The notes beneath the pieces are model-generated. The model had not been told where the DNA came from. It searched no databases and was given only the letters and a program-made list of their open reading frames with translations. DNA of 44,149 nt from Deltaproteobacteria bacterium (GTDB lineage Bacteria > Myxococcota_A > UBA9160 > UBA4427): the NCBI GenBank assembly GCA_031400655.1, contig JANNQH010000876.1, positions 1 to 44,149 on the forward strand, written 5' to 3'. A program made the position numbers and the translations under genes. The number at the start of each line of letters is the position of its first letter. Positions within the stretch are counted from its first letter, which is position 1. Of the stretch, positions 16,126 through 39,338 are shown one piece after another.

Positions 16126-16139
16126 GTGGTTCCGATCGT

Positions 16140-16424: not shown

Positions 16425-16432
16425 TCTCAACC

Positions 16433-16465: not shown

Positions 16466-16491
16466 GCAGCGGTTCCCTAGTCTGAGCCGTC

Positions 16492-18348: not shown

Positions 18349-18457
18349 GGCCACCCTCCCTTCGCGCGGGACTTCCTGCCCGACCCGCGCCATCGGCTCG
18401 CTCCGTGCGCTCCCGGGGTCGTCTCCCTGACGACGGGAGGGATCGTCGACGCTCGCC

Positions 18458-21351: not shown

Positions 21352-21398
21352 CCCGATCCTCTCGAACGCGACGGTCTCGAGAGCGCATGAGATGGGAA

Positions 21399-22993: not shown

Positions 22994-23045
22994 CGTGGGG
23001 TCGTGTCCTTTCGTGCGGATGGCTCCCATCCGTTCATCCGCGCGT

Positions 23046-23678
23046 TCATCGTCTCCTGGTCAGCACACCCGTCAGCATGCAGTCCACGATGGCCTCCGAG
23101 AGACTCGGATCGAGGGGGGCATCTTCGATGACGACTCGGTCCGTATAGGTGAGATGGATCGCGGTGATCAGATCCGCCATGTGTTCGACTTCGACGTCCG
23201 CTCGGACCTCGCCCTGCGCAACGCCTCGCCGGAGGATCTCCTCGATCAGACGACGAAGGGCCCGGGAGCCCCGCTCGATCACGTCGGTCTCGGTCGACAG
23301 AAGCAGCTGCGTATCACGGGTTAGGAGCAGATGAAGCAGGGGATGGGCGCGGCCGTAGGCCAGGGAGACTTCGTGGAGCACGCGCAACGCGCCCGCTGCG
23401 CCGCCCCGCGCCCTCGAGACCTCGTCGACGAGCGTCTCGTTCCACTCGGTGATCAGGCGATCGACGACGACCTGGAAGACATGGGTCTTGTCCGTGAAGC
23501 GGCGGTAGAAGAGGGGTCGCGAGACGCCGGCCAGCGCGACGATGTCCTGGATCGTCGCCTTCTGGAAGCCGACCGTGCCGAAGACTTCGGCCGCCGCGGA
23601 CAGGATGCGCTCCTGGCCCTCGTCGAAGAGCTCGTCCGCAGACGCATTGGTTCGGACCTGTTTGAGGGTTGACGGCAA
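23046..23678 (-). CDS. TetR/AcrR-family transcriptional regulator
   Basis: The HTH reads ERILSAAAEVFGTVGFQKATIQDIVALAGVSRPLFYRRFTDK. The start codon is TTG and lies inside repeat R1. Confidence 0.9.
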   Translation of the reverse strand: MPSTLKQVRTNASADELFDEGQERILSAAAEVFGTVGFQKATIQDIVALAGVSRPLFYRRFTDKTHVFQVVVDRLITEWNETLVDEVSRARGGAAGALRVLHEVSLAYGRAHPLLHLLLTRDTQLLLSTETDVIERGSRALRRLIEEILRRGVAQGEVRADVEVEHMADLITAIHLTYTDRVVIEDAPLDPSLSEAIVDCMLTGVLTRRR

Positions 23679-23768
23679 GACTGGTACCCCGTTACAGTGG
23701 TGACACGATTTGTAACGCGCGAGCCCAGGCCCCGCAATGGGCCACGGGGCGAATGATCGACTACGACC
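23640..23768 (+). repeat. R1: 129-bp copy of the duplicated TetR/oxygenase divergent control region
   Basis: Hand alignment with 34441-34572 gives 6 substitutions and one 3-nt indel. R1 spans TetR codons 1-13 (leftward), the promoter/operator, and ATGATCGACTACGAC (MIDYD, rightward). Confidence 0.9.
23669..23717 (+). promoter_or_regulatory. Putative sigma70-type promoter overlapped by inverted repeat CGTTACA-N14-TGTAACG (candidate TetR operator)
   Basis: TTGACG at 23669-23674 and TACAGT at 23693-23698, with 18-nt spacing. The 7-bp inverted arms lie at 23690-23696 and 23711-23717. This architecture is inferred and untested. Confidence 0.45.
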
Positions 23769-23842
23769 ATCTGGGCACGACTCCCGCGCATCCGCCGCAC
23801 GTTCAATGGCTCGAGATTCTGCGCTTCACAAGGAGCACATCG

Positions 23843-24763
23843 ATGGTTGGATTCGAAGTCAAACCGCTGGAGAACATTGGCGCAGAAATCGTCGGACTGG
23901 ACCCGAACGGGCTCACCGACGAGGTTCAGCGCGATCTCTACGCAACCTGGATGGAATTTGGAGTCCTGCTCTTTCGCGAGGGGGCGAGCGATGCGGCGAC
24001 GCATCTCAAGCTCGCAAAGGTCTTCGGCGACCTCGAGGTTCATCCCCTCAAATCGCTTCTCGTCGAAGGCCAAGAGGAGTTGATCTGGCTGGGCGGTCAA
24101 GACAAGAATTCGGGCGGTTCACGCGTGATCGATGGCGACGTTCGGCTGGGCCAGGTCTATTGGCATCAGGACACCGCTTATACACCTAATATCTGCAAGG
24201 GCTCCATGCTGCGAATGATCACGAAGTCCAGACGCGCGGGCAATACGATCTGGGCCGACACGTCCAAGGCCTACGACGCTCTACCCAAAGAGTTGGCCGA
24301 GCGAATCGAGCCGCTCGAGACGCTTCAGAGGTACTCGGATCTCGCTCGCAAGACGTGGGGGATGCCCGGTCACGAGGTGCGACGAGCCACCCCCGAAGAA
24401 GGCCCGCCGAGTCAGGTCGATGTTCCTGACTTTCCGCGTGTTGCCCATCCTATGGTGATCACGCATCCCGAGAATGGTCGCAAAGCGCTGCTGCTGAGTC
24501 CGCTCGGCTATCTGACCATCCTCGGCCTGCCCGAGGATGAAGCGGACGAAATTTTCGAAGCCGTCGTGGCGCATACGGTGCAGCCACAGTTCTGTTACGA
24601 CCATCGGTGGACGGAAAATGATCTCGTCTTGTGGGACAACCGTCGAACCCTTCACTACGCACTGGGATATCCGGTCGATGACAATCGTATCGTTCAGCGG
24701 ACCACGCTTGCAGGTCCGCTGCCGACCGGTCACGTGTACGAAGAGGCGAGCTCCGATCACTGA
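23843..24763 (+). CDS. TauD/TfdA-family Fe(II)/2-oxoglutarate dioxygenase
   Basis: The ATG at 23843 lies 7 nt after AAGGAG. Reads MVGFEVKPLENIGAEIVGLD...YWHQDTAY...DLVLWDNRRTLHYA. An upstream in-frame ATG at 23753 (MIDYD) belongs to repeat R1 and is probably vestigial. Confidence 0.85.
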   Translation: MVGFEVKPLENIGAEIVGLDPNGLTDEVQRDLYATWMEFGVLLFREGASDAATHLKLAKVFGDLEVHPLKSLLVEGQEELIWLGGQDKNSGGSRVIDGDVRLGQVYWHQDTAYTPNICKGSMLRMITKSRRAGNTIWADTSKAYDALPKELAERIEPLETLQRYSDLARKTWGMPGHEVRRATPEEGPPSQVDVPDFPRVAHPMVITHPENGRKALLLSPLGYLTILGLPEDEADEIFEAVVAHTVQPQFCYDHRWTENDLVLWDNRRTLHYALGYPVDDNRIVQRTTLAGPLPTGHVYEEASSDH

Positions 24764-24785
24764 ACCGTCGGTTCGGGACTGCCCC

Positions 24786-25754
24786 ATGAGCTTCGCTTTG
24801 ACCGAGGACGTAGAAAGGTTCGACATGGGTGTGCTCGCAGGAAAGGTCGCAGCAGTCACGGGTTCCGGGCGTGGAATTGGCCGGGGGATCGCGCTGAAGC
24901 TCGCGGAAGAGGGCGCACGGGTCGTCGTGAACGATCTCGGTGGTGCTGTCGATGGCGGTGGCACGAGCCCCGTCGCTGACGAGGTCGTGGAGGAGATCCT
25001 CAAGGCCGGGGGCGAGGCGATCGCAAACTACGACAGCGTCGCCTCCGTCGAGGGCGGTCGCGCAATCTTCCAATCGGCCATCGATGCCTTCGGCGGCCTG
25101 GACATCCTCGTGAACAACGCGGGCGTGCTGCGCGACCGAACGATCTTCAAGCTTGAAGAACAGGATTGGGACGCGGTCATCGCGGTTCACCTCAAGGGCC
25201 ACTACTGCTGTATCCGCCCCTTCGCGCAGTACATTCGCGAGACCGGGCGACTGGGCTGTCGGATCATCAATTTCTCGTCGGTCTCGGGACTCTGGGGCAA
25301 CTTCGGTCAATCAAACTACGGGGCGGCGAAGGCGGGCATCGCGGGCTTCAGCCGAGTCCTGGCCATCGAGCTGGCAAAATACGAATGCACGGTGAATACG
25401 ATCTCGCCCGGGGCTGCGACGCGCATGACGGTCTCGCTCGGCGCAGGCGGGGCCGAGGTCGTCGATGCCGACGACCCTCTCCAGAGCCCCGGGATCGTCG
25501 CCCCGGTTATCACGTGGCTCGCCTCCCCCGCGGCTCATGCGATCACCGGTGAGATCATCCATGTCGTTCCGGGCGTGCTCGGCATCATGCAGCAGCCGAA
25601 GCTGATCAAGAGCTATACGGCGGACCATCTCTGGACGCTAGGCGAGCTCGACGAGTTGATTCCGAGCCTGGTCGAAGCGCGCAAGCAGCACGACGATCGA
25701 GTGGCAGCAGCAGCCGAACCCGAGAGGGTCGAGTCTGCGGAGGATGGTCGATGA
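24786..25754 (+). CDS. SDR-family oxidoreductase (resembles the 3-hydroxyacyl-CoA dehydrogenase domain of MFE-2-type enzymes)
   Basis: Reads GKVAAVTGSGRGIGRGIAL...VNNAGVLRD...NFSSVSGLWGNFGQSNYGAAKAGIAGF. Confidence 0.88.
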   Translation: MSFALTEDVERFDMGVLAGKVAAVTGSGRGIGRGIALKLAEEGARVVVNDLGGAVDGGGTSPVADEVVEEILKAGGEAIANYDSVASVEGGRAIFQSAIDAFGGLDILVNNAGVLRDRTIFKLEEQDWDAVIAVHLKGHYCCIRPFAQYIRETGRLGCRIINFSSVSGLWGNFGQSNYGAAKAGIAGFSRVLAIELAKYECTVNTISPGAATRMTVSLGAGGAEVVDADDPLQSPGIVAPVITWLASPAAHAITGEIIHVVPGVLGIMQQPKLIKSYTADHLWTLGELDELIPSLVEARKQHDDRVAAAAEPERVESAEDGR

Positions 25755-27022
25755 GTCGAACGATCTTCTCCCGGGCGAACGTGCTCGACCCGGGTGCTCC
25801 GCCCGGATCGCGCGCCCGTGAGCGGGCCACGGTCGTAGTCAAAGGCAACAAGATCTCATCGGTCGGCGGGAACGTCGAGCCGGAACCCGACGACGTCTTC
25901 ATCGATCTCGACGGCCGCACATTGATGCCTGGCCTCACGACCTGTCACTTCCACTCGACCTATCGCGATGTGGCTGGGCAGGTCGAGCCCCTCGGTTGCG
26001 AAAAGCCTCCCGTCTATCTCGGCCTGATCGCGGCGGAGCATCTGCGAGGCGCGCTTCACGCGGGGTTCACTGGGGTCGTGAGCGCGGGCGCGATCCCAGC
26101 CGATATCGACGCACAGTGCAAGATGGCGATCGAGGACGGGCTGATTGAGGGACCTCGAATGCTCGCGGGCAGTCGCGGTCTCGATACGGTCGCGGCTTCG
26201 ACCGATCTCGAGCGGTGGTGGTGGGAGATCCACAATCACGGCGCCCAACGCCTGGCGAGCGGCGTCGATGGATTTCGCGATGCCGTGCGCGATGAGGTGA
26301 AGCGCGGAGCCGAGATCATCAAGATCTTTCCCACGGCCGGTCATGCGGGCTACCCGGGCCGTCCGGGTACCGAAGGCCAGATGACCCTGCACGCGGACGA
26401 ACTGCGTTCCGTTGTCGACACGGCCCATCAGGTCGGCGTCAAGGTTCGCGCGCATTGCGTTTGGAAGTCCGCGATCCGAACCTGCATCGAGGCCGGCGTC
26501 GACGTGATCGACCACGGCGACCAGATCGACGACGGGCTGATCGAGTTGATGGTGGAGCGGGGCACCTTTCTCGTGCCGAGCATGTTCTTCGTCCATGTCC
26601 TGCTGGGCGAGGCGGCGGGGATGCTCGGCGGGACGGACAGCCTGGAGGCCGCCCGGCGCGATCAGGGCAACATGCTGGAGTGGCTGCCTCGCGCCAACGC
26701 GGCCGGTGTGAAGATCGTCTGCGGCGACGACTATGGGATCATCACCCTGCCCCATGGCCGATATGCCGAGGAGCTCGCGTACTACGCAAACCAGGTCGGG
26801 ATCCCGTCCGAGGACGTACTGCGCTGGGCGACGGTCAATGGCTACGAACTTCTGGGACTCGGCGCGCGCGCGGGGCGGATCGAGGCGGGCTATCTCGCGG
26901 ATTTGCTGGTGGTCGATGGCGACCCCGCGCTCGACCTCGCCCTGCTGCAGGATCCGGAACGCCTGCAGGCAGTCGTGTTGGGAGGCCGCTTCGCGGTGAA
27001 TCGCCTGGAGGATGCTTCGTGA
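25751..27022 (+). CDS. Amidohydrolase-1 family metal-dependent hydrolase
   Basis: Overlaps the upstream gene by ATGA. Reads LMPGLTTCHFHSTY...IKIFPTAGH...VRAHC...VIDHGD...GDDYG. Confidence 0.8.
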   Translation: MSRTIFSRANVLDPGAPPGSRARERATVVVKGNKISSVGGNVEPEPDDVFIDLDGRTLMPGLTTCHFHSTYRDVAGQVEPLGCEKPPVYLGLIAAEHLRGALHAGFTGVVSAGAIPADIDAQCKMAIEDGLIEGPRMLAGSRGLDTVAASTDLERWWWEIHNHGAQRLASGVDGFRDAVRDEVKRGAEIIKIFPTAGHAGYPGRPGTEGQMTLHADELRSVVDTAHQVGVKVRAHCVWKSAIRTCIEAGVDVIDHGDQIDDGLIELMVERGTFLVPSMFFVHVLLGEAAGMLGGTDSLEAARRDQGNMLEWLPRANAAGVKIVCGDDYGIITLPHGRYAEELAYYANQVGIPSEDVLRWATVNGYELLGLGARAGRIEAGYLADLLVVDGDPALDLALLQDPERLQAVVLGGRFAVNRLEDAS

Positions 27023-28179
27023 GCCTCAACGGGCGCGTCGCGATCGCCGGCGCGTACGAACATCCGAGCCGCCTCGCCCCGGGAAAGTCAGAGCTTCAGC
27101 TGATCGCCGAGGCGGCTAAGGGCGCCCTCGACGACGCCGGTCTCACGCTCGACGATGTCGACGCGCTCTACTCCGCCCATGCGAATTCCCTCCAGATGGG
27201 GGTCGTCGCCGTGGCCGAGTATCTCGACCTCCATCCCAATCACCTCGACGGCACGAATATCGGCGGGGCCTCCTTCGTCTCGCACGTGGGCCACGCGGCG
27301 GCTGCCATCCACGCGGGGCTCTGCGAGGTCGCGCTGATCGTCTACGGCAGTACGGCGGCCTCGAACGCGGTCGCGATCGGGACAGGCCTCGACATGGGGA
27401 GCGACCCCGTCCTCGCCTTCGAGAACCCCTTCGGCCAGGTTCTGGCTGGCAGCTACGCGATTGCCGCTCAGCGTCACATGCACCAGTACGGAACGACCTC
27501 GAATCAGCTCGCGGAGATCGCAGTGGCGATGAGGGCCCATGCATCGCTCAATCCCGATGCGAAGATGCGCGAGCCGATCACGGTCGCGGATGTGGTCGGA
27601 AGCCGGATGATTGCCGACCCTCTCCATCTGCTCGATTGCTGCATCATCACCGATGGGGCCGGTGCAGTCGTCGTGACGAGTGCCGAGCGGGCGCGGGATC
27701 TTTCGAAACCGCCGGTTCTCGTACGCGGCTGCGGCGAGGCCGTCTGGCACCAGAGCCGGGGTCGCTCCGATCCCCTGATCATCGCGGCCCGCCAGTCAGG
27801 CGAGCGTGCCTTTGCGATGGCGGGAGTGGAGCCCGCGGACATCGATTTCTGCACGCTCTACGATTCTTTCACGATCACCGTGCTGCTTACGCTCGAGAAC
27901 CTCGGCTTTTGCAAGCCCGGGGAGGGCGGTGCCTTCGTCGAGAACGGGCGCATCGCTCTCGGTGGCACGCTGCCGGTGAACCCCGATGGCGGCGGCCTCT
28001 CTTCGAACCACCCCGGCATGCGTGGGATCTTCCTCGTGATCGAGGCCGTGCGTCAGCTACGCGGCGAATGCGGATCGAGGCAGGTTCGTGATGCAGAACT
28101 CGCCTGCGTTCACGGGACGGGTGGCATGCTGACGCACATGCACAGCGGGGCGACTCTCATTCTCTCGGGAGATGTATGA
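27019..28179 (+). CDS. Thiolase-superfamily protein (SCP-x / lipid-transfer / Ltp2-like)
   Basis: The GTG overlaps the upstream stop (GTGA). Reads RVAIAGAYEHPSR...LLDCCIITDGAGAVVVTSAERA...NPDGGGLSSNHPGMRGI. Confidence 0.85.
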   Translation: MSLNGRVAIAGAYEHPSRLAPGKSELQLIAEAAKGALDDAGLTLDDVDALYSAHANSLQMGVVAVAEYLDLHPNHLDGTNIGGASFVSHVGHAAAAIHAGLCEVALIVYGSTAASNAVAIGTGLDMGSDPVLAFENPFGQVLAGSYAIAAQRHMHQYGTTSNQLAEIAVAMRAHASLNPDAKMREPITVADVVGSRMIADPLHLLDCCIITDGAGAVVVTSAERARDLSKPPVLVRGCGEAVWHQSRGRSDPLIIAARQSGERAFAMAGVEPADIDFCTLYDSFTITVLLTLENLGFCKPGEGGAFVENGRIALGGTLPVNPDGGGLSSNHPGMRGIFLVIEAVRQLRGECGSRQVRDAELACVHGTGGMLTHMHSGATLILSGDV

Positions 28180-28583
28180 GCGAGAAGATCGTCTACGAAG
28201 CACCGATCGTGACGCCCGAGACCGAGGCCTTCTGGCAAGGATGCAGTCGAGGGGAGCTGTTGCTCCAGCGTTGTGTCGATTGCGCGGAGCTTCAGCACAA
28301 ACCGCGCGGGTGCTGCGCCGCTTGCCTTGGCCCGCGTCTCGAGAACGTGGTGTGCTCCGGGGCCGGCTCGATCTTCAGCTTCACGATCATTCGGAAGAAC
28401 CGTCTACCCGCGTTCAAGGAGGCAGGACCCTACGTCGTCGCCTGGGTCGAGCTCGAGGAGGGGCCGCGCCTCATGGCGAACGTGGTCGGCATCGAGGCGG
28501 CCGACGTGCGGATCGGCCTTCCCGTCCGGGTGGAGTTCGTGCCGGCTGGCGGGCTCGCCGTGCCGAGATTCCGCGTCGCTTGA
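28176..28583 (+). CDS. Zn-ribbon + OB-fold protein (DUF35), partner of the thiolase-like protein
   Basis: Overlaps the upstream gene by ATGA. Reads FWQGCSRGELLLQRCVDCAELQHKPRGCCAACL (Cys4 ribbon), then GSIFSFTII...YVVAWVELEEGPRLMANV. Confidence 0.85.
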   Translation: MSEKIVYEAPIVTPETEAFWQGCSRGELLLQRCVDCAELQHKPRGCCAACLGPRLENVVCSGAGSIFSFTIIRKNRLPAFKEAGPYVVAWVELEEGPRLMANVVGIEAADVRIGLPVRVEFVPAGGLAVPRFRVA

Positions 28584-28669
28584 GCCGGGGTGTGTGGCAA
28601 GCAGCGCCCGGGACGCTTGGCCGGATGGCCCGTCGGTCAGTCACGAAATGATCCGTCGAAGGAGGAGAG

Positions 28670-29479
28670 ATGACCGAGCAAGCTCCGCGCGTCCGACTCG
28701 AGAAGCACGGCCCGATCGCGACCATCGTGCTGAGTCATCCGCGAAAGCTGAACGCCTGGAACTGGCAATCGGCTCGCGAGCTGAGTGCCCACGCGGACGA
28801 CCTCCGCTTCGACGAAGGGACTCGCGTCGTCATCGTGCGGGCGGAGGGCCGCTCGTTCTGTGCCGGGGCGGACGTTGCGGGCCAGGATGACGATTTCACC
28901 GGCCGCTCACCCGCCGAGACGGTCCGAAATTTTTATGAACGCTTCCGTTGGGTCAACGAGCGATTCAATGTGCTCACGAACTTACCGCAGCCTGTCCTGA
29001 TGGCCGTTCAGGGCCACTGTCTCGGTGCAGGGCTCGAGCTCGCGATGATGGGTGACATCCGAGTCGCAGCGGAGGACGCGTCCTTCGGCCTGCCGGAAGC
29101 GCGGATCGGGGGCCCTCTCGATACAGGGGGCGACATGCGGCTCGTCTCGGAAATCGGCCCGGGTTGGACGCGGCTGCTGGCTTTCACCGGCCGCCGAATC
29201 GACGCGGCTACGGCGCTTCGCCTGGGCATCGTCCAGGAGGTCGTGGCGCGCGACGACCTGGAGACCCACGTCCGCGCGCTGGCTCAGCAGATCGCCGACA
29301 ACGCGCCGCTCGCGGTTCAGGCGATGAAGCGCACGATCAATTTCTGGGCGGAGCGCGGAATGTCAGAGGCGATTCGCTTTCAGGCGGCGAGCTCTGCACC
29401 CTGCTTCGTCTCCGACGACATGGTGGTGGGCTACGAGGCGGCCAGCGCGAAAGTCAAACCCGAGTTCCTCGGAAAGTAA
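28670..29479 (+). CDS. Enoyl-CoA hydratase/isomerase family protein
   Basis: Reads IATIVLSHPRKLNAWN...VIVRAEGRSFCAGADV...PVLMAVQGHCLGAGLELAMMGDIRVA. Confidence 0.9.
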   Translation: MTEQAPRVRLEKHGPIATIVLSHPRKLNAWNWQSARELSAHADDLRFDEGTRVVIVRAEGRSFCAGADVAGQDDDFTGRSPAETVRNFYERFRWVNERFNVLTNLPQPVLMAVQGHCLGAGLELAMMGDIRVAAEDASFGLPEARIGGPLDTGGDMRLVSEIGPGWTRLLAFTGRRIDAATALRLGIVQEVVARDDLETHVRALAQQIADNAPLAVQAMKRTINFWAERGMSEAIRFQAASSAPCFVSDDMVVGYEAASAKVKPEFLGK

Positions 29480-29524
29480 GTGCCGCGCGGCGTAGATGCG
29501 GACGGATCACGCGAAGAAGTGTTC

Positions 29525-29945
29525 ATGGAATTCGCACTCCAGATGACCTTTCAGAAGTAGGGCCATCCCCCGGACTTCACGCATGCGCGCGTCTTTGCCG
29601 AGGAAATCCAGATGGCGTTGATGGACGGACGGTCTTTGGGATCGGAACCGGGGACAGCGCGCTGCTGAAGCTTGGGGGAGCGGCCCATGCAGCCCGCGAA
29701 CCGTCACCTCCAGGTGGGCTACGCGGCCCACGAGCACTGCCGGGTCGAATCCTCGGATCACAATCGTTCCCTGGTCGTCGACGGAGGGCTGATGGAGTAC
29801 CTCGGGCGTCGCTTCCTGATCGCGGGAATTCCGGAGGAGCTTGCGGAGCAGGGCGCGCGAAACCTCTTCATTCCTTCGGTCGTCGGGGATCCCCACGGCT
29901 ATGCGGATCGTCTGGCCGAAAAAGTGCTTCCGGCGTTCCGTTGGG
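29525..29945 (+). pseudogene. Heavily decayed LLM-class oxidoreductase relic (stops, frameshifts, internal deletions)
   Basis: Opens MEFALQMTFQK then a stop; compare MEFWQSLAL and MQFWLSIAR in the intact copies. Later pieces read GRTVFGIGTGDSA (another frame) and FLIAGIPEELAEQGARNLFIPSVVGDPHGYADRLAEKVLPAF, which is typical of an LLM C-terminus. Confidence 0.4.
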
Positions 29946-30122
29946 GTCGGCCGAGGCGTGGCCGGCCCCGACACGCAGTGCGACGACGTGCGCCTGGGCC
30001 TGGTCGGTCTTCTCGACGATTCTGTCGATAGTGAGCGTGTTCGATGTCGACATGTAGTCTCCTCTGGCCAAGAGCGGACGTACGGGATATCAAAGGCCGC
30101 CACAATCAATTGCATTCGAAAG

Positions 30123-30542
30123 ATGGACATGACGCACGTTCTCGATGCCGTGATCTCCGGAGAGACGCCGCGGGCCGACTACTCGTCCCGCCTCGAGCTT
30201 CCCCGTCCCCAAGGATGGGAGCGCGGGCGCGTCTGGGCGCGCTGGACGGTGGGCCCGGACTACCTGACGCCCTGGGGTGCCGTCTTTGGCGGCTACATCG
30301 CGGCCGTGGCCGACGAATTTGCCGGCATGGCCGCGCTGTCCGTGCTCGAGCCCGGCGTTCGCTTCGGTACCTCCGACCTGCGCATCTCCCTGATGCGGGC
30401 GCTACGGCCGGGCGTAGTCGAGATCGACGCGCGCGTGCTCTCCCACGGCCGATCCGCGGTCCATGTCGAGGTCGACTTCGTTCGACAGGACGGCAGCCTC
30501 GCGGTCCGGGTCTCGGCGACCCAGGTCCTTGCACATGGCTGA
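30123..30542 (+). CDS. PaaI-family (hotdog-fold) thioesterase
   Basis: Reads MDMTHVLDAVISGE...LTPWGAVFGGYIAAVADEFAGMAA...IDARVLSHGRSAVHVEVDF. Confidence 0.82.
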   Translation: MDMTHVLDAVISGETPRADYSSRLELPRPQGWERGRVWARWTVGPDYLTPWGAVFGGYIAAVADEFAGMAALSVLEPGVRFGTSDLRISLMRALRPGVVEIDARVLSHGRSAVHVEVDFVRQDGSLAVRVSATQVLAHG

Positions 30543-30656
30543 GGACTAGCGCTCCGCTCCGTCGAAGCGGGTCGGATTGAGACACCGTGGAGTGTCGCAG
30601 GAGCCGTCGGTGCGGCTCGCAACCGACCGCGAGTGCTGGTCCATTCCCATCCTTGG

Positions 30657-30677
30657 ACCGATCGCCGATCGGTGTTT
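30657..30677 (+). terminator. Hairpin ACCGATC-GCC-GATCGGT followed by GTTT, between convergent genes
   Basis: 7-bp perfect stem. It touches the stop codon of the reverse-strand XDH-family gene. Confidence 0.3.
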
Positions 30678-32962
30678 CAGCCGCGCTTCGTCTCGATGGC
30701 TTCGAGCACCCGGGGCGGGGTCATGGGCAACCGGTGCATGCGCACGCCGATCGCCCGGGAGACCGCGTTCCCGACGGTCGCGAGCGGCGGCACGATCGGC
30801 GTCTCACCGACACCGCGCACGCCATAGGGATGGAGCGGATTCGGGACCTCGACGACGACTGTGTCGATCATCGGCAGATCCGACGCGACCGGCATCCGAT
30901 AGTCGAGGAATCCCGGGTTCTCCATCTTCCCGTTCTTGTCGAAGAGATACTCCTCCCAGAGCGCCCAGCCGATGCCCTGAGCGGCTCCGCCCTGGAGCTG
31001 CCCTTCGACGTAGCTCGGATGGACCGCCTTGCCCGCGTCCTGGACGACCGTGTATCGCACGACCGTCGAGCGGCCCGTCTCGGGATCGACCTCGATGTCG
31101 CAGAGATGGACCCCGAAGCCCGGCCCCGCCGCGGGCGGATTGACCGAGGCGCTCGCGATGATGGGGCCGCCGGTGCGACCCATCTGCTTCGCGATCTCGG
31201 CCAGCGAGAGCGGCTTGTTGTTGGAGGCCCCGTTGGTGCCGATCGCCTGCCCGTCACGCCACTCGACCGCGTCGACCTCGCAGCCCCAGATCGTGGCCGC
31301 ACGCGCGCGCAGGTGCTCGATCACGAGCTTCGACGCCTCGATCACGGCCATGCCCGTCGCGTAGGTCACGCGACTTCCGCCCGTCGAGTCGCAGTAGCCG
31401 ACCGAGTCCGTGTCCCCGACGAGCGGGCGTACGCGCTCGACGGGAATTCCCAGCTCCTCGGCGACCATGATCGCCATCGAGGCGCGCGAGCCGCCGATGT
31501 CCGGGTTCCCGGTCCGGACGACCGCCGACCCGTCGTCGTCGATCGACACCGTCGCACTCGACTGGAACCCGACATTGAACCAGAAGCCGGCCCCGACGCC
31601 GCGTCCCTGGTTCTTGCCGAGGGGCGCCGTGTAATGCGGATGGCTCTTCGCCGCTTGGAGACACTCGATGAATCCGATGCGATCGAACTTCGGACCGTAC
31701 GAAGCCATGTCCCCCTCCTTCACGGCATTCTTCAGCCGCAGGTCGATCGGGTCCATCCCGAGCTTCTGGGCCAGCTCGTCGATCACCGACTCGAGCGCGT
31801 AGGCCGCGTTGGGCGCGCCCGGCGCCCGATAGGCCGCGACCTTCGGCTTGTTGAGAGCGACGTCGAGTCCCTCCAGCCGGAAGCTCGGAAAGTTGTAGGA
31901 CGCGAAGATCGTCATCGCCCCAGCACCCATCGGCGACCCCGCGAAGCCGCCCGCCTCAAATTCCATGAGCGTATCGGCCGCGACGAAACGTCCGTCCTTC
32001 TTCGCGCCGAGCTTGACCCAGATGCGCGTGCCCGAGGTCGGACCCGTCGCCCGGAAGACCTCCTCGCGCGTCATCACCATCTTGACGGGCCGCCGCGCCT
32101 TGCGCGACAACAACAGCGCCACCGGCTCGAGATAGACCGTTGTCTTACCGCCGAACCCGCCGCCGATCTCGGACGGCGTCACGCGGATCAGGTTCGGGTC
32201 GAGCTGGAGCATCCCCGCGACCAGCGACTTGACGGAGAACGGGCCCTGGGTCGAGCACCAGATTTCGGCCTCACCGTTCTCACGGGTCATCACGACCGCT
32301 GCATGGGGCTCGATGTAGCCCTGATGCGCCATGCTGACCTCGTACCAGCCCTCGACGACGACGTCCGCCGTCTTGAACGCCGCATCGACGTCGCCCTTCG
32401 CGTTCGCGAGGCGCATCATGATGTTCGTGTCGCCCTCGGGCAGCGGCGGCACGCCGACGGCCTTGCGGCCCGGGTGCAGGATCGGCGCGTCCTTCGCGAG
32501 CGCCTGATCGAGGGAAAGGACCGGCTTCAGGACCTCGTAGTCGACCTCGATCGCCTGGCAGGCTTCGCGCGCCTGCTCGAGGGTCGTCGCGGCGATGGCC
32601 GCGATCGCATGGCCGTGATAGAGGGCCTTGCCGCGAGCCATGATATTGGCCTGGAGATCCCTCGGGTCGATGAGCCTCTCGCCTGCGAGCAGCATGCCCG
32701 AGCTGTCGAGCTCCGGAAAATCCGCGCCCGTGACGACCGCCTTTACTCCGGGCAGCTTCAGCGCGGCCGAGATGTCGATCCGCTCGATCCTCGCGTGGGC
32801 GTGTGGGCTTCGAAGGATCGCGCCCCAGAGCATGCCCGGCAGCGCCAGATCCGCGCCGTAGCCGGCCCGACCCGTCACCTTGTCGACGCCGTCGTGGCGG
32901 ATCGGTCGCGTACCCACGACCTTGAACTTGCGATCGCCGTTGCGGCTGGTCTGGTAGCTCAT
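30677..32962 (-). CDS. Xanthine dehydrogenase/aldehyde oxidase-family molybdopterin-binding subunit
   Basis: The ATG at 32962 follows a GGGGAGA RBS. Reads FKVVGTRPIRHDGVDKVTGRAGYGADL (a/b hammerhead), then AAYRAPGAPNAAYALES...GGFGGK...DAGKAVHPSYVEGQLQGG. Confidence 0.9.
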   Translation of the reverse strand: MSYQTSRNGDRKFKVVGTRPIRHDGVDKVTGRAGYGADLALPGMLWGAILRSPHAHARIERIDISAALKLPGVKAVVTGADFPELDSSGMLLAGERLIDPRDLQANIMARGKALYHGHAIAAIAATTLEQAREACQAIEVDYEVLKPVLSLDQALAKDAPILHPGRKAVGVPPLPEGDTNIMMRLANAKGDVDAAFKTADVVVEGWYEVSMAHQGYIEPHAAVVMTRENGEAEIWCSTQGPFSVKSLVAGMLQLDPNLIRVTPSEIGGGFGGKTTVYLEPVALLLSRKARRPVKMVMTREEVFRATGPTSGTRIWVKLGAKKDGRFVAADTLMEFEAGGFAGSPMGAGAMTIFASYNFPSFRLEGLDVALNKPKVAAYRAPGAPNAAYALESVIDELAQKLGMDPIDLRLKNAVKEGDMASYGPKFDRIGFIECLQAAKSHPHYTAPLGKNQGRGVGAGFWFNVGFQSSATVSIDDDGSAVVRTGNPDIGGSRASMAIMVAEELGIPVERVRPLVGDTDSVGYCDSTGGSRVTYATGMAVIEASKLVIEHLRARAATIWGCEVDAVEWRDGQAIGTNGASNNKPLSLAEIAKQMGRTGGPIIASASVNPPAAGPGFGVHLCDIEVDPETGRSTVVRYTVVQDAGKAVHPSYVEGQLQGGAAQGIGWALWEEYLFDKNGKMENPGFLDYRMPVASDLPMIDTVVVEVPNPLHPYGVRGVGETPIVPPLATVGNAVSRAIGVRMHRLPMTPPRVLEAIETKRG

Positions 32963-33094
32963 GCTGTTTCTCCCCACATCGACGCGGCCGCGTCGAGGAC
33001 GGTCCTCGCGAGCGATCGTCATGTCGTCGCATCTCGACTCGGTTCGGCTCTGCCGGCGGCTCGGCTCCCGAATCGGCTGTGTCGATCGGCCCGC

Positions 33095-33547
33095 CTATTT
33101 CGTCCACTCCTCGGGCGGCTTCCCATCTCCGACATCCGCATGGACCGAAACCACCGAGACCCGCTCGACATTCAACGTCGCCGTCACCCGCTCGTCGCCC
33201 GGCCGATCGAACGGATAGCGGTCTTGGCCCATGTACTTCTTCGCGATCGAATCGATGAAGCGGCGGTCCTTGTCGTCCTCGAGGGTGACCCGGCCGCGGA
33301 TCTCGATGTATCGCCAGATGTTCTGCGGATCCGGGACGGACAGGGCCACCCGGTCGTCCGCGCGGAGGTTGCGGTATTTTTCGCGGGTCTTCGTGAAGCT
33401 GAAGCGAACGTGACGACCGTCCCAGATCAGACAGACTGGATGATTCGAAAGCATGCCGTCCGGCCGCACGGTGGCCACGTGCGCGAAACACTTCGCCTCC
33501 AGGATGTCGACATGGCTCGCGGGGATCTCCCGCAGAATCTTGGGCAT
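33095..33547 (-). CDS. PPOX-class (pyridoxamine-5'-phosphate-oxidase-fold) probable F420/FMN-dependent protein
   Basis: Reads ILEAKCFAHVATVRPDGMLSNHPVCLIWDGRHVRFSFTKTREKYRNLRADDRVALSV...WRYIEIRGRV. Confidence 0.8.
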   Translation of the reverse strand: MPKILREIPASHVDILEAKCFAHVATVRPDGMLSNHPVCLIWDGRHVRFSFTKTREKYRNLRADDRVALSVPDPQNIWRYIEIRGRVTLEDDKDRRFIDSIAKKYMGQDRYPFDRPGDERVTATLNVERVSVVSVHADVGDGKPPEEWTK

Positions 33548-33705
33548 GGTGAATCCCTCTTTGACTCCGAGGTCTCGCCTCGAGAGCTAGCCCCGATCCG
33601 TTATTAGATCGGCCGGTTTACGAAATGATCTCTACCGGTGGTGAAGAAAATCCCGCTGATTCTCCTACGCGCCAGGAAACCCTGCAGGCGATCTCATCGC
33701 GAGCA

Positions 33706-34401
33706 TCACAAGGCTCTCACGGTGAATTCGTTACCGCGCCCGACGTCGATCGGAAGCGATTGCGAGAGATAGCCGTTCGCCGGGTCGCGGACGTAATCCA
33801 GATAGCCTTGGTCGAAGGCGTTCTCACCGAGGATCACCGCTCCAGGCTTCAGCCGGGGTTCGATCAGCTTCAGTACCGGCAGGTAGAGGGATAGTGCGCC
33901 GTCGATCAGCAGCAGATCGACTTCGCCGCCGACATCCCTGAGAGTCTGCAAGGCGTCGCCTTCGCGAATGTCGACCAGATTGGCGAGGCCCGCCGCGTCG
34001 AGGTTGGTGCGCGCCCGCCCCACCTTGGCGGACTCCAGTTCGGTACCGATGAGATGCCCGCCGCCGTTGTCCCGGAGCGCGGCAGCGAGATAGATCGCCG
34101 AGATCCCCATCGACGTGCCGAACTCGACGATGCGCGTCGCCCTGCGGGCGCGAGCGATCATATAAAGGAAGCGCCCGAACGTCGGCGAGACGGCAAGGAA
34201 ACTGGCCGCGCAGCTCCGATAGACTGCCCGATAGTCCGCGCGTTCCTTCGCGAGCCACTGGCTGCCCCATTGCTCCATCGATGCGCCGGAGACCCCCATA
34301 TCCGTCATGACCCCGGCCATATTCTCTCGGTCTGCCGATTCGGCCTCCTGATGAAGCCTGCCCAGGATTTGGGGGACAGGTCCGGTTGTTAGTGTGTTCA
34401 C
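33706..34401 (-). CDS. Class I SAM-dependent O-methyltransferase (caffeoyl-CoA OMT-like)
   Basis: The GTG at 34401 lies 8 nt after AAAGGA. Reads RIVEFGTSMGISAIYLAAAL...LIGTELE...DLLLIDG. The track's longer ORF (to 34479) borrows 13 vestigial TetR codons from repeat R2. Confidence 0.82.
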   Translation of the reverse strand: MNTLTTGPVPQILGRLHQEAESADRENMAGVMTDMGVSGASMEQWGSQWLAKERADYRAVYRSCAASFLAVSPTFGRFLYMIARARRATRIVEFGTSMGISAIYLAAALRDNGGGHLIGTELESAKVGRARTNLDAAGLANLVDIREGDALQTLRDVGGEVDLLLIDGALSLYLPVLKLIEPRLKPGAVILGENAFDQGYLDYVRDPANGYLSQSLPIDVGRGNEFTVRAL

Positions 34402-34440
34402 GTCATTTCCTTTCACGTTTCCTGGGGGCCGAATTGGCAT

Positions 34441-34572
34441 AGACGCATCGGTTCGGGCCTGTTTGCGGGTTGACGGCAAGACTGGTACACCGTTACAGTG
34501 ATGACACGATTTGTAACGCGCGAGCCCACGCCCCGCAATGGGCCACGGGGAGGCGAATGATCGACTACGACC
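34441..34572 (+). repeat. R2: 132-bp copy of the duplicated TetR/oxygenase control region
   Basis: See R1. Here the rightward MIDYD continues into the P450 gene. The leftward TetR-like codons (MPSTRKQARTDAS) have no TetR continuation. Confidence 0.9.
34470..34518 (+). promoter_or_regulatory. Second copy of the putative promoter and the CGTTACA-N14-TGTAACG operator
   Basis: TTGACG at 34470-34475. Inverted arms at 34491-34497 and 34512-34518. GGAGG RBS before the ATG at 34557. Confidence 0.45.
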
Positions 34573-35744
34573 CCTATGCCGAAGACGTCCTCGCGGATCC
34601 CCATCCCTTCTACCGCCGTCTGCGCGAAGAGGCGCCCGCCTACTACGTCGAGAAATACAACGCCTGGGCGCTCTCGCGCTTCGAAGACGTCTGGATGGCC
34701 TCGGGCGATCCGACGCGGTTCTCGTCGACCGGGGGAACGCTGCCGGCGCAGGTCCTGACGAAGGAGCAGCCAGTCATCCCGATCCTCAACTACATCGATC
34801 CCCCCCAGCACACCGAGCTGCGGGGCATCTTCAAATCCCGGTTCACGCCGCGGGCGGTCGGAGCGATGGAAGGCATGGTGCGCGCGGCGGCCGTCGAGCT
34901 CCTCGAACGCGGCGCGCAATCGAGTGAATTCGACTTCGTCGACGACTTCGCGATCCCGTTCTCGACCCGGGTCGCTGCGCACGTGATCGGCGTTCCGCCC
35001 GCCGACATGCCCTCGATGGTCGAGTGGATGCAGCGCTTCTTCGGTCACGATCCCGACAGTGGAAGCATGACCCCGGACGGAATCGAGGCGCTCGAGGAGG
35101 TGAACTGCTACGGCGCGGATCTGGTCCGGGAGCGGCGGCGCCGGCCGACCGACGCCTCCGACGCGATCAATTCGCTGATCGCCCATGAGCGCGCGACGGG
35201 CCGATTCTTTGCCGACGAGGAGGCCGGGATGCACCTCGGCATGCTCGTGATCGCGGGCGCCGAGACCTCCGCGAAGGCGCTCGCCCTCACTGTCTCGCTC
35301 CTGGCACGCCATCCCGATCAGCGTCGCCGTCTGCGGGAGGAGCCCGGGCTCGTGGTCGACGCCTTCCACGAGGCCCTGCGCTTCGACAACCCGACCCAGT
35401 TCCTCTGTCGGACCGTCGCGCGGCCGACCGAGCTCCATGGCCAGAAGCTCGTGCCCGGCCAGGGCGTGATGCTCCTCTACGCTTCCGGCAATCGCGACGA
35501 GCGCGAGTTTGCGCTGCCCGACCGCTTCGACGTGACCCGGCGACCCGCCCGCCTCCTGAGCTTCTCGGTCGGACGTCATCTCTGCCTGGGAATCCACGTC
35601 GCTCGCCTCGAGGCTCGAGTTGCCCTCCAGGAGCTCTTGTCGCGCCACCCGGAATACCAGGTCGACTTCGCCCGGGCCGAGTCGATCCGCACCGAGTTCA
35701 TCCGGGGCTACAGCCATCTGCCCGTATCGCTCCGGCGATCCTGA
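34557..35744 (+). CDS. Cytochrome P450
   Basis: Reads MIDYDPYAEDVLADPHPFYRRLREEAP.... Contains AGAETS (I-helix), EALRF (ExxR) and the heme loop FSVGRHLCLGIHVARLE. Confidence 0.92.
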   Translation: MIDYDPYAEDVLADPHPFYRRLREEAPAYYVEKYNAWALSRFEDVWMASGDPTRFSSTGGTLPAQVLTKEQPVIPILNYIDPPQHTELRGIFKSRFTPRAVGAMEGMVRAAAVELLERGAQSSEFDFVDDFAIPFSTRVAAHVIGVPPADMPSMVEWMQRFFGHDPDSGSMTPDGIEALEEVNCYGADLVRERRRRPTDASDAINSLIAHERATGRFFADEEAGMHLGMLVIAGAETSAKALALTVSLLARHPDQRRRLREEPGLVVDAFHEALRFDNPTQFLCRTVARPTELHGQKLVPGQGVMLLYASGNRDEREFALPDRFDVTRRPARLLSFSVGRHLCLGIHVARLEARVALQELLSRHPEYQVDFARAESIRTEFIRGYSHLPVSLRRS

Positions 35745-35767
35745 TCCGACCGCGGCGGGGAGAACCG

Positions 35768-36640
35768 ATGGAATTCTGGCAATCGCTGGCCCTGACCGAG
35801 ATGGACGAGCTGGTCGAGCTCGCGCGCTTCGCCGAAGAGGTCGGCTTCGACGGCATCACGATTTCGGACCATCTCGCGACGCCTAAGGAGATCCGCACGA
35901 CCTATCCCTACACGGAGGACGGCAAGCCGATGTGGGCGCCGGACGACGCTTTTCCCGACCCCTGGGTCCTGATCGCGTCGATGGCCCAGGAAACGAAACG
36001 CATTCGATTCATGCCCTTCGTCTACGTCCTTCCGATGCGAGACCCCTTCAGTGTCGCGAAGCTCGTCTCGAGCGCAGCCGTGTTGTCGCAGGAGCGCGTC
36101 GTTCTCGGCGTTGGAACCGGCTGGATGGAGGAGGAATTCGCCCTGGTCCAGCGCGCGTTCCGTCGCAGGGGACGGCGCACGGATGAGATGCTCGAGGTGA
36201 TCGCAAAGCTCCTCTCGGGCGCGACGGTCGATCACGAGGGCGAGTTCTACGCCTTCGAGGGTGTCCACATGGCGCCTGCGCCGACGCGTCGGGTCGAGGT
36301 CCGGATCGGCGGCCTGAATCGCGCCGCCCTGATCCGGGCAGCTCGACACGACGGCTGGCTCGGCCTCGGCCACTCGCCCGAGGAGGTCGAGGCGATCGTC
36401 GCTTTTCTCGAATCGGAACGGAGTCGACTGGGGCGCAGCGAAATGCCCTTCGACGTCATGATCTCCCACCACCCCAGCGATCCGGATGCCGGGGAATACG
36501 AGCGTTACCGGGACGCGGGCGTCGACAGCGTCAACGTGCCGCCCTGGCGCTACCGGGGCATCGCCTCGATGTCGCTCGACGCGAAGCGCCGGTCGCTCGA
36601 GGAATTCGCCGAGCGATACATCGTGCGGCGCGCGGCCTGA
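35768..36640 (+). CDS. LLM-class oxidoreductase, short (~290 aa) form resembling the F420-dependent subgroup
   Basis: Reads MEFWQSLALTEMDELVELARFAEEVGFDGITISDHL...VLGVGTGWMEEEF...RGRRTDEMLEVI. Confidence 0.88.
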   Translation: MEFWQSLALTEMDELVELARFAEEVGFDGITISDHLATPKEIRTTYPYTEDGKPMWAPDDAFPDPWVLIASMAQETKRIRFMPFVYVLPMRDPFSVAKLVSSAAVLSQERVVLGVGTGWMEEEFALVQRAFRRRGRRTDEMLEVIAKLLSGATVDHEGEFYAFEGVHMAPAPTRRVEVRIGGLNRAALIRAARHDGWLGLGHSPEEVEAIVAFLESERSRLGRSEMPFDVMISHHPSDPDAGEYERYRDAGVDSVNVPPWRYRGIASMSLDAKRRSLEEFAERYIVRRAA

Positions 36641-36652
36641 AGGGAGCTCGAC

Positions 36653-37522
36653 ATGCAGTTCTGGCTTTCGATCGCGCGCACCGACGTCGATCAACTCGTG
36701 CCCCTGGCCCGGCTCGCGGAGGAGCTCGGCTTCGCCGGCGTCACGATGAGCGATCACATCGTGCGCCCGCGACAGGTCGAGTCGCGCTACCCGTATTCGG
36801 CGTCCGGTCAGATGGCGACCGACGAGACGACGCCCTATCTCGATCCCTGGGTGCTCGTCGGCGCGCTGGCGCGGGCGACGAAGCGCCTGCGCTTCATGCC
36901 CTGCGTCTACATCCCGGCCCTGCGCGATCCCTTCTCCGTCGCGAAGAGCGTGGCGACCGCAGCGATCGTCTCCGACGATCGGATCCTGGTGGGGATCGGG
37001 GTCGGGTGGATGAAGGAGGAGTTCGACCTCGTGGAGCGGCCCTACGCGAATCGCGGGGCGCGGACCGACGAGCTGATGGCGGTCGTCCATGCGCTGCTCG
37101 GCGGCGGCATGGTCGAGCATCACGGAAAATTCTACGACTTCCCCCCAGTCGAGATGGCGCCCGTTCCCCGTCACCGACCGCCGGTCCTCGTCGGCGGCCA
37201 CAGCCCCGTCGCCCTGCGGCGCGCGGCGCGGGCCGACGGTTGGCTGGGCGTCCACTACGACGTCGAGACCGTAGTCGGCATTCTCCAGAGGCTGGCTGCA
37301 CTCCGGCGGGAGGCCGGCAGGACTTCGCTTGCCTTCGACGCCGCGACCGCGCTGACCGCTCCCCCCGCGGACGAAGACCTCGAACGCCTCGAGGCGGCCG
37401 GCGTTACGATGATCGTGCATCCCCCGGTGCTACGACCCGATGGAGCCCGCTCGAGCTTCGACGAGAAGCGTGAACGACTCGGGGCCTGGGCCCAGCGCTA
37501 CCTCCCGCGAAACGCAGCCTGA
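36653..37522 (+). CDS. LLM-class oxidoreductase, short form; tandem paralog of the preceding gene
   Basis: Reads MQFWLSIARTDVDQLVPLARLAEELGFAGVTMSDHI...LVGIGVGWMKEEF...RGARTDELMAVV. Confidence 0.88.
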   Translation: MQFWLSIARTDVDQLVPLARLAEELGFAGVTMSDHIVRPRQVESRYPYSASGQMATDETTPYLDPWVLVGALARATKRLRFMPCVYIPALRDPFSVAKSVATAAIVSDDRILVGIGVGWMKEEFDLVERPYANRGARTDELMAVVHALLGGGMVEHHGKFYDFPPVEMAPVPRHRPPVLVGGHSPVALRRAARADGWLGVHYDVETVVGILQRLAALRREAGRTSLAFDAATALTAPPADEDLERLEAAGVTMIVHPPVLRPDGARSSFDEKRERLGAWAQRYLPRNAA

Positions 37523-37530
37523 GGACGCCC

Positions 37531-38658: not shown

Positions 38659-38686
38659 TGTCGTCGAACGCGAGGAACGACGTCTG

Positions 38687-39325
38687 ATGGCGCAGCACGC
38701 ACGCTCGCGACCCGAGAAGGCCGTCGTCGTCTCTGACGCGCCGGGCGCCGAGCTGCATTACCACCTGACCAGGCTCGATCTCTCGAGACGCGCGCTCTCC
38801 CTCCCGGTCGAGTCCGAGCCCCCCCGGTCCCTCACGAACTTCGCCGAGCTCTGGGGACCCGAGCCGAAGCTCCGATCGCTCGTCGCGCGGTGGCCCTTTC
38901 CGGCGCGTGCCTGGCTGGTCTCCGAATTCGTACCGGTCTCCTACGAGCGGACCTGGCGTTCGGGCGTAGCGAGCCCGGGCCTGCGCATGGTGAGCACCGT
39001 CCATCGCAGACCGGATCTCTCCCGCGACGCATTCGAGCAATACTGGCTCGGCCCGCATGCTGCCGTCGCGAAGAGCTATACGGTGCCCGTCTGGCACTAT
39101 GTCCAGAACGTCGTCCTCGAAGCCCTGGGACACGACTCCGACGTGGACGGCTTCGTGGGGATGCATTTCCGCACGGCCGAGGAACTGCGGTCCCGATGGC
39201 GCGATCATCCGAGGGAGGCGGCACGAGGTGCCGATGATGCAGCGAATTTCATGGCGACCGAGAGGTCGGTCGCCGTCACGACGATCGAGACGGTCTGGGA
39301 CGACGGAGTCAGCGCCAGAGGCTAG
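38687..39325 (+). CDS. EthD-domain protein
   Basis: The ATG at 38687 follows a GAGGAA RBS. The C-terminal half reads MVSTVHRRPDLSRDAFEQYWLGPHAAVAK...VQNVV...VDGFVGMHF. Confidence 0.65.
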   Translation: MAQHARSRPEKAVVVSDAPGAELHYHLTRLDLSRRALSLPVESEPPRSLTNFAELWGPEPKLRSLVARWPFPARAWLVSEFVPVSYERTWRSGVASPGLRMVSTVHRRPDLSRDAFEQYWLGPHAAVAKSYTVPVWHYVQNVVLEALGHDSDVDGFVGMHFRTAEELRSRWRDHPREAARGADDAANFMATERSVAVTTIETVWDDGVSARG

Positions 39326-39338
39326 AGGCGGGCAACTC

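Follow-up and report, generated by a model that had tools for sequence, protein, structure and literature searches.

How does a control region that lies between two divergent genes come to stand twice on one contig, each time beside a different pair of genes, and which of these genes might it control? The question is raised by a 44,149-nucleotide (nt) stretch of a Deltaproteobacteria bacterium (assembly GCA_031400655.1, contig JANNQH010000876.1), referred to here as the window. A TetR-family repressor gene (23046..23678, minus strand) and a cytochrome P450 gene (34557-35744, plus strand) are separated in it by a 10,672-bp block of metabolic genes (23769..34440), which is bracketed by two direct copies of one control unit, R1 (23640..23768, 129 bp) and R2 (34441..34572, 132 bp). 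The structure of the locus, its ancestry and the conservation of its palindrome are observations; on the sequence, one repressor probably controls four transcription units instead of two. The best joint explanation, to which we assign a probability of about 0.8, combines insertion of the block, duplication of the unit, one TetR acting over four units and a one-step origin independent of any recombinase.

The duplicated unit and its single-copy counterparts

R1 comprises TetR codons 1 to 13, the 74-nt intergenic region and P450 codons 1 to 5, and R2 is a second copy of this TetR/P450 control unit. Gapped alignment with MAFFT yielded 6 substitutions and one 3-nt indel between them, bearing out the count given in a preliminary description of the locus, and the similarity of the two copies stops abruptly at both edges. 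A repeat finder delimited a gapless core of 110 nt at 95% identity with a spacing of 10,801 nt; the longest exact match between the copies is 27 nt. The runner-up direct repeats in the 44-kb window reach merely 36 to 45 nt at 65 to 75% identity, in agreement with the earlier statement that no comparable similarity exists elsewhere in it. All elements listed at that time, namely a leftward TTG-CCG-TCA-ACC reading, a TTGACG box, the palindrome CGTTACA-N14-TGTAACG and a rightward start encoding MIDYD (ATGATCGACTACGAC), are present in both copies.

In four relatives, one from NCBI (L005, GCA_964416215.1, TetR 94% identical) and three from JGI metagenomes (L103, L104, and L105), the TetR gene lies directly back-to-back with the P450 gene around a single 132-bp unit, and the flanks are 94 to 97% identical to the window. 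When each of these empty-site loci was compared with the window by blastn, two alignments were obtained that end exactly at 34441 and 23768 and overlap by 132 bp in the relative. The overlap represents the unit in single copy; in the window the unit is present twice and encloses 10,672 bp missing from the relatives. In more distant loci with 74 to 78% identical TetR proteins (L006 to L009, L097, and L098), the TetR gene is likewise divergent from the P450 operon. The unsplit TetR/P450 locus that the preliminary description had suggested looking for in relatives thus exists, with both genes adjoining, and its proposal of an ancestral divergent TetR/P450 unit into which the 23769-34440 block was introduced, splitting it, is directly supported by the empty-site alignments. 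A different arrangement was seen in two loci with 69 to 72% identical TetR proteins, in which the P450 gene lies downstream of TetR, or of TetR and SnoaL, on the same strand (L099:379-1336; L100:1029-2528).

Live and vestigial gene starts

The TetR gene begins inside R1 with TTG 23678 and encodes 210 amino acids with a TetR_N domain (PF00440, E = 1.1e-13) and TetR C-terminal domains. Relatives carry ATG or GTG at the position of this codon, and the TetR homologs all begin with MP... there, which fixes TTG 23678 as the real start. At R2, ATG 34557 opens a full-length P450 according to Pfam. The block genes next to the copies each have their own ribosome-binding site and start: the TauD-type dioxygenase gene starts at ATG 23843, with a Pfam match from residue 5 and close homologs of 306 to 312 amino acids, and the methyltransferase gene starts at GTG 34401, giving a protein of 231 amino acids, the commonest length among its listed homologs. 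The preliminary description had read the leftward frame of R1 as a genuine TetR gene and the rightward MIDYD of R2 as a genuine P450 gene, had given TauD and the methyltransferase internal starts at 23843 and GTG 34401, and had concluded that each copy holds one live and one dead start. The TetR_N match together with the start position fixed by relatives, the Pfam assignments and the homolog lengths agree with each of these calls.

The dead starts are a vestigial P450 start (MIDYD, 23753..23768, plus strand), whose GGAGG ribosome-binding motif was lost through an R1-specific 3-nt deletion, and a vestigial TetR start of 13 codons (34441..34479, minus strand; MPSTRKQARTDAS). The latter preserves, as a fossil, an older TetR N-terminus than that of the live gene. 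Both dead starts, ATG 23753 and TTG 34479, are in frame with TauD and the methyltransferase downstream without an intervening stop, at distances of 30 codons (23753-23845) and 26 codons (34399-34479), respectively. By a rough estimate, the chance of both being in frame and free of stops is a few per cent, and these frames could have allowed fusion proteins to be translated as soon as the block had been inserted.

As genuine N-terminal extensions of TauD and the methyltransferase the dead starts were rejected, since the homolog lengths fit the internal starts. For TauD in particular, the frame from ATG 23753 is disrupted by indels in three loci with an 84%-identical TauD (L010 to L012), and six of the seven changes in strain L016 between ATG 23753 and the TauD ATG, read from the alignment, are non-synonymous in that frame; this stretch is under no coding constraint. 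The GGAGG deletion is present in every R1 copy, and the corresponding change in R2, GGGG to GGTG, is confined to the window and the Logan strain and is not found in L102. The idea that both dead starts lost their ribosome-binding motifs early was accordingly dropped, as only the R1 half of this pattern is old.

Putative operator and promoters

The putative TetR operator CGTTACA-N14-TGTAACG occurs at 23690..23717 in R1 and at 34491..34518 in R2. These are the only two sites in the window, even when two mismatches are allowed, against a chance expectation of 0.02. The slightly shorter form GTTACA-N14-TGTAAC was found just upstream of TetR in most of the relatives examined, namely in L005 to L009, L097, L098, L100 and both copies of L102, with a variable spacer; in L100 it is still upstream of TetR, though the P450 gene is on the same strand. 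It was not found in L099, and there was none in 1.15 Mb of unrelated loci. The half-sites are invariant in all aligned copies of this lineage while the spacer changes, and the palindrome is the best-conserved intergenic feature. A scan of JGI metagenome contigs with the pattern CCGTTACANTGNNGACNCNATTTGTAACG returned no match but missed the known relatives too, and is thus uninformative on extra copies. The window protein shows what is expected of a TetR-family regulator: an N-terminal helix-turn-helix domain, a target gene that is divergent or adjacent across relatives, and a palindromic putative operator in the shared intergenic region. Its matches among PDB sequences are only remote (best Mce3R and FadR, E about 1e-7), so that no ligand can be inferred.

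A promoter scan matched a rightward site, TTGACG-18-TACAGT, in both copies (23669..23698 and 34470..34499, plus strand). Its -10 element lies within the left operator half-site, and it now faces TauD at R1 and the P450 gene at R2. In the opposite direction, a candidate promoter TTGCGG-17-TACAAA, with its -10 element within the right operator half-site, was read by eye at 23709..23737 in R1 (minus strand), where it would be the TetR promoter, and at 34510..34538 in R2 (minus strand), where both hexamers are identical and it now faces the methyltransferase operon. In L005, L006, and L009 the surrounding bases differ, but TTGC, TACAAA and the 17-nt distance between the elements persist. Each copy therefore seems to hold two overlapping divergent promoters, the leftward one inferred, that share one operator.

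Regulatory reading of the duplication

The locus took shape as follows. The ancestral form consisted of TetR divergent from an operon encoding the P450, luciferase-like monooxygenases and a sulfotransferase, with a shared intergenic region of 74 nt. In the lineage of the window, a 10,672-bp fragment with two convergent operons was then inserted into the TetR/P450 intergenic region in such a way that the 132-bp unit came to lie on both sides. We propose that, in the resulting arrangement, R1 serves TetR to its left and the TauD operon to its right, while R2 serves the methyltransferase-PNPOx-molybdenum cofactor (MoCo) oxidoreductase operon to its left and the P450 operon to its right. Binding of TetR to an operator would shut off the two promoters of the copy concerned, and all four units would answer to one TetR ligand. 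Insertion alone would have broken up the bidirectional promoter, whereas the duplication would leave a complete one for all four units, which may be the reason why this variant survived.

The preliminary description had noted that the same putative operator now precedes two oxygenase operons. The putative operator is indeed in both copies, but this statement understated the matter: control from each copy would run in both directions, so that four transcription units are concerned rather than two, and because each copy also carries a leftward candidate promoter, the methyltransferase-PNPOx-MoCo operon was probably recruited as well.

Alternatively, the copies might be mere scars of the insertion, with the block operons running on promoters and regulators of their own and the duplicated operator being without regulatory consequence for them. 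We consider this unlikely. It is in keeping with the own ribosome-binding sites and starts of the block genes beside the copies, and with the weakness of the leftward promoter prediction. The space for independent promoters is small, however, as just 74 nt separate the TauD start from R1 and 39 nt the methyltransferase start from R2. In the three 84%-identical TauD loci, a TauD leader of about 70 nt is conserved, with homology to the window from 23773 onward; relative to these loci, the leader in the window is thus truncated 5 nt short of the R1 edge. The promoter scan detected no promoter-like site in the TauD or the methyltransferase leader, and Pfam recognized no regulator gene among the open reading frames (ORFs) of the block. 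The block came without an upstream region of its own. As it carried neither a regulator gene nor more than a trace of upstream sequence, its genes probably rely on the copies for expression. Furthermore, the operator half-sites and promoter hexamers are constant in both copies of three strains, where other positions have changed. We therefore retain the regulatory role of both copies as the preferred interpretation.

Origin of the block

No transposase, integrase or recombinase domain was recognized in the block, and every ORF with a Pfam match encodes a metabolic enzyme. The block has no terminal inverted repeats, the best inverted match of its ends being 12 nt with one mismatch and non-terminal, no tRNA gene was detected within 9 kb of it, and Rfam gave no match in it. 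Its GC content of 0.650 is close to that of the flanks (0.657 and 0.677), and its tetranucleotide correlation with them, 0.97 to 0.98, is the same as that of flank versus flank. No plasmid matched the locus in a megablast search. A transposon or insertion sequence with target-site duplication was rejected on the grounds of the missing transposase, the missing inverted ends and the length of the duplication (129/132 bp), and an integrase-mediated genomic island on those of the missing tyrosine or serine recombinase, the missing tRNA target and the native composition.

The route that we favor is a single event, independent of a recombinase, in which the ends of the incoming DNA would have been joined to target strands 132 bp apart, either by fill-in of a staggered break or by a template switch during replication, with synthesis resuming 132 bp behind the point of departure. 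It is favored because one event suffices and no pre-existing third copy of the unit is needed. This is the least certain part of our explanation, and the data do not decide it.

A Campbell-type integration, in which a circle carrying the block and its own 132-bp unit entered the TetR/P450 intergenic region by a single RecA-dependent crossover, would also leave flanking direct repeats equal to the target, and thus to the segment of homology. Repeats of 130 bp suffice for homologous recombination, the native composition of the block fits, and R1-specific changes could be allelic differences of the donor; a comparable pattern in Arabidopsis was attributed to the insertion of a circular product (PMC2869330). 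We nevertheless regard this route as doubtful. The circle would need TetR codons 1 to 13 and P450 codons 1 to 5 between the methyltransferase and TauD genes, that is, the same structure at an earlier time, and neither a methyltransferase-unit-TauD junction nor an extra unit was seen in the loci retrieved. In addition, R1 shares derived bases with R2 and is no distant allele.

We consider it improbable that a larger tandem duplication, comprising the unit and a then-neighboring block, was later trimmed by deletion to two 130-bp copies. The neighborhood is rich in indels, as illustrated by the absence of 11344-22468 from L103 and L104 and the different gene order of L005, and this would be congenial to such a history. 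However, the unsplit relatives show no block gene in the flanking sequence at hand, 1.3 to 10 kb on each side. Two or more illegitimate junctions would be required, both happening to keep complete promoters, and no leftover duplicated TetR/P450 sequence extends past the unit edges.

Searches with the genes of the block provided little trace of its source. A scan of genome contigs with the block enoyl-CoA hydratase yielded only matches of 63 to 67% identity, in metagenome-assembled genomes of Acidimicrobiia that lack block synteny. Relatives of TauD occur at 84% (L010 to L012) and 76% identity (L013 to L015) in contexts unrelated to the window, so that the block is no conserved unit in the TauD relatives. 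In L013 to L015 (10001-12914), the 76%-identical TauD homologs adjoin a sulfatase and an EthD gene, and the P450 operon of the window contains a sulfotransferase and an EthD gene. This hints that both modules, the block and the P450 operon, act on sulfated compounds.

Direction and age of the duplication

Bases common to R1 and R2 but missing from all four single units, such as the TTG start in place of GTG and the motif CTGGTAC, identify the two as sister copies made in the lineage of the window. R1 and R2 differ from each other only at four fixed positions and the indel, whereas a hand count from the alignment gave about 14 differences over 132 positions between R2 and the L005 unit. At four of the five fixed differences between R1 and R2 (three substitutions and the 3-nt indel), R2 matches the state of the relatives; the fifth is ambiguous. 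All changes that can be polarized thus fall on R1: three substitutions in TetR codons 5, 8, and 11, and the 3-nt deletion in GGAGG. The substitutions are probably neutral, because the N-terminal tail is hypervariable in the family. For the same reason, namely that the first approximately 20 residues vary strongly across the family, we rejected an adaptation of the live TetR as the cause of the three amino acid changes.

It is very improbable that the split form is older and that deletions between R1 and R2 gave rise to unsplit loci on several occasions; the present data already speak against it. Recombination between 130-bp direct repeats would indeed restore exactly one unit. However, a contiguous TetR-P450 ancestor must have existed, because the copies hold the 5' ends of both genes, and R1 and R2, with their derived bases in common, resemble each other far more than they resemble the single unit of any relative. 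The single units have many private changes and none of the three TetR-codon markers of R1, and hence they are not products of a deletion between R1 and R2. Nine unsplit loci from about four lineages, with TetR identities of 74 to 94%, all lack the block. As a rough placement, the duplication would be younger than the separation from the L005 and L103 lineages (flanks 3 to 6% different) and older than the separation of the window from L102 and L016 (2 to 4%).

Junctions in other assemblies

Other assemblies encode the exact proteins of the window, and both junctions recur outside the contig. Logan contig L003 spans window positions 22741-29534 across R1, and Logan contig L001 spans 32874-37098 across R2, each at 99.9% identity. 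The R1-TauD junction is also present in L016 (98% identical, from a different project), and L102, a 15.5-kb ENA scaffold from another sample (96 to 98% identical), extends from within TetR through R1, the entire block and R2 into the P450 operon. R1 is found in L003, L102, and L016 bearing its own markers, and the markers distinguishing R1 from R2 are constant across these strains. Two units are present in the window and one in each unsplit relative, and none in the other loci retrieved, a distribution unlike that of an interspersed repeat of the repetitive extragenic palindrome (REP) or miniature inverted-repeat transposable element (MITE) type. The two dangers to which the preliminary description had drawn attention, assembly chimerism and a generic multi-copy intergenic repeat, can therefore be set aside as practically negligible and refuted within the limits of the data, even though the window seems to be a metagenome-derived contig and two contigs of one sample (L002 and L004) end inside the repeat: L001, L003, and L102 traverse copies whose longest exact match is short, the copy-specific markers are stable between strains, and relatives hold the unit once, at the orthologous site.

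Weighing the explanation

Several points weigh against the explanation advanced here. With regard to regulation, the leftward candidate promoter scored below the threshold of the scan tool, its basis being conservation read by eye, and the block operons might carry promoters of an unrecognizable kind in their short leaders. With regard to origin, neither a donor locus nor a circular form nor a further copy of the block turned up in the loci retrieved or in the 44 kb, so that the mechanism of insertion is a choice among models that leave equivalent footprints; the homology search for further copies of the unit within this genome covered these 44 kb only. With regard to age, divergence is mosaic along the locus, L102 differing from the window by 1 to 8% per 500 nt. 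On the P450 side (34573-36750), unsplit L103 (2.4 to 2.9% from the window) is as close as split L102 (3.8 to 4.8%), and within the 132-bp unit L102 is much closer to the window than L103. This suggests recombination among lineages around the locus, which blurs the dating.

Gene content and neighborhood

The window has 66% G+C, and its ORFs were selected by third-position GC content and Pfam matches. The two operons of the block are convergent, with their 5' ends facing R1 and R2. Operon 1 (23843..30542, plus strand; Pfam, with gene calls in L003 and L004) encodes TauD (23843-24763), a short-chain dehydrogenase/reductase (24786-25754), an amidohydrolase (Amidohydro_1, 25751-27022), a thiolase-like protein (27019-28179), a ChsH2-type oligonucleotide/oligosaccharide-binding (OB)/DUF35 protein (28176-28583) and an enoyl-CoA hydratase (28670-29479), followed beyond a 640-nt gap by a 4HBT thioesterase (30123-30542). 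ORFs in the gap (29480-30120) have no Pfam match; one of them was called as a 61-amino-acid gene in L004, and strain L102 lacks 330 nt of the gap (29520-29849). This stretch may be a decayed gene. Operon 2 (30677..34401, minus strand; Pfam) encodes the methyltransferase (33706-34401; Pfam and homolog length), a PNPOx-like protein (33095-33547) and a molybdopterin-binding subunit of the aldehyde oxidase/xanthine dehydrogenase type (30677-33022).

On the right, the resident P450 operon (34557..40217, plus strand; Pfam) comprises the P450 gene, two luciferase-like monooxygenase genes, a sulfotransferase gene, an EthD gene and a third luciferase-like monooxygenase gene. This order is repeated in L005 and, with a DUF1214 gene inserted after the P450 gene, in L006 to L009. 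Strain L102 lacks about 365 nt within the first luciferase-like monooxygenase gene (window 36135-36500; L102:2977-3622), which is probably inactivated there. On the left of R1, the minus strand carries TetR, a SnoaL/DUF4440 protein gene, an Amidohydro_2 protein gene and a gene for an AMP-binding ligase.

The neighborhood of TetR and P450 is rich in indels. L103 (2922-4254) and L104 (1245-2674) lack about 11 kb (window 11344-22468) between the PhyH and SnoaL genes and retain a stub of about 48 codons of an Amidohydro_2 gene, which looks like a deletion in these two loci. Gene order in L005 differs again (SnoaL, DUF1214, 4HBT_3, PhyH, IclR). The DUF1214-type gene shifts its location: it lies inside the P450 operon in L006 to L009, L097, and L098 (L006:7654-8736; L009:7602-8681), beside SnoaL in L005 (L005:6836-7936), and in the window past the end of the P450 operon on the opposite strand (41016-42130). 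An inverted repeat of 44 nt with 86% complementarity (12370-12413 and 22553-22596) corresponds to the N-terminal regions of two paralogous, oppositely oriented Amidohydro_2 genes (12254-13507, plus strand; 21399-22613, minus strand) and is a possible substrate for inversion. Elsewhere in the window, a very long ORF (1177-5970, 1597 amino acids) contains a family of 25-nt repeats at 3778-4642, and the sole RNA gene detected by Rfam and tRNA scans is a tRNA-Asn (GTT) gene at 43279-43354 on the minus strand.

Implications and comparison with known systems

If our explanation holds, this locus catches the growth of a regulon by promoter-operator duplication, with the enlarging step still visible and with the direction and relative age of the event fixed by empty-site relatives and fossil gene starts. 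It makes definite predictions: one TetR should bind two sites, the four units should be co-induced, and the TauD and methyltransferase transcripts should start inside the copies. The duplication may link two enzyme sets in one pathway, the first with a TauD-type dioxygenase, beta-oxidation-like enzymes and a MoCo oxidoreductase with a methyltransferase, the second being the P450/luciferase-like monooxygenase/sulfotransferase operon, and this link may aid in guessing the substrate. As the 130-bp direct repeats make the block excisable by homologous recombination, a presence/absence polymorphism is predicted in the population. A 132-bp target duplication free of mobile-element genes is unusual for bacteria and can be screened for elsewhere. 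It is tempting to go further and speculate, as a rather improbable generalization, that insertion of promoter-less operons with duplications of about 130 bp is a recurrent, recombinase-independent process that wires new operons into regulons, for example through breaks or template switches favored at divergently transcribed regions; if this were true, long target duplications with fossil starts would offer a mark by which growing regulons could be searched for throughout the bacteria. The present case is clear-cut and lends itself to testing, yet it concerns one event in an uncultured organism.

The textbook example of a divergent promoter-operator region of a TetR-type repressor and its target is tetR/tetA of Tn10. 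The locus described here resembles it in that a TetR-family gene is divergent from its probable target and a palindromic putative operator lies over two back-to-back promoters, so that a single bound repressor would silence both. In contrast to tetR/tetA, the window has the entire control region twice, 10.8 kb apart, with each copy facing two different units, and its TetR is only remotely similar to any characterized TetR. In the actinobacterial regulons of KstR, KstR2, and Mce3R, several operons of lipid and steroid catabolism are under one TetR-type repressor. The window shares with them the placement of one operator motif, putative in its case, in several, often divergent, promoter regions as well as the enzyme repertoire (P450, ChsH2-type OB fold, thiolase-like protein, enoyl-CoA hydratase, short-chain dehydrogenase/reductase). 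The KstR, KstR2, and Mce3R operators, however, are short motifs in otherwise unrelated promoters, whereas the second site of the window is a 132-bp copy complete with fossil gene starts.

As with the target-site duplications of transposons and the att repeats of genomic islands, the insert lies between direct repeats of target sequence. Unlike transposons, which duplicate 2 to 15 bp, and unlike islands, the window has a repeat of 132 bp and native composition, with no transposase, integrase, inverted ends or tRNA target. A shallow literature search returned no bacterial case of a TetR control region duplicated around an insertion, and the nearest analog is in plants. In Arabidopsis, transposed non-transposon genes were found between direct repeats of the target's own, largely genic, sequence, revealed against the orthologous empty site, and a circular product of tandem repeats was proposed as the route (Woodhouse et al. 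2010, PMC2869330). Unlike that survey, our analysis concerns a single event, without evidence of a circle, in a bacterium, and one with a putative regulatory consequence.

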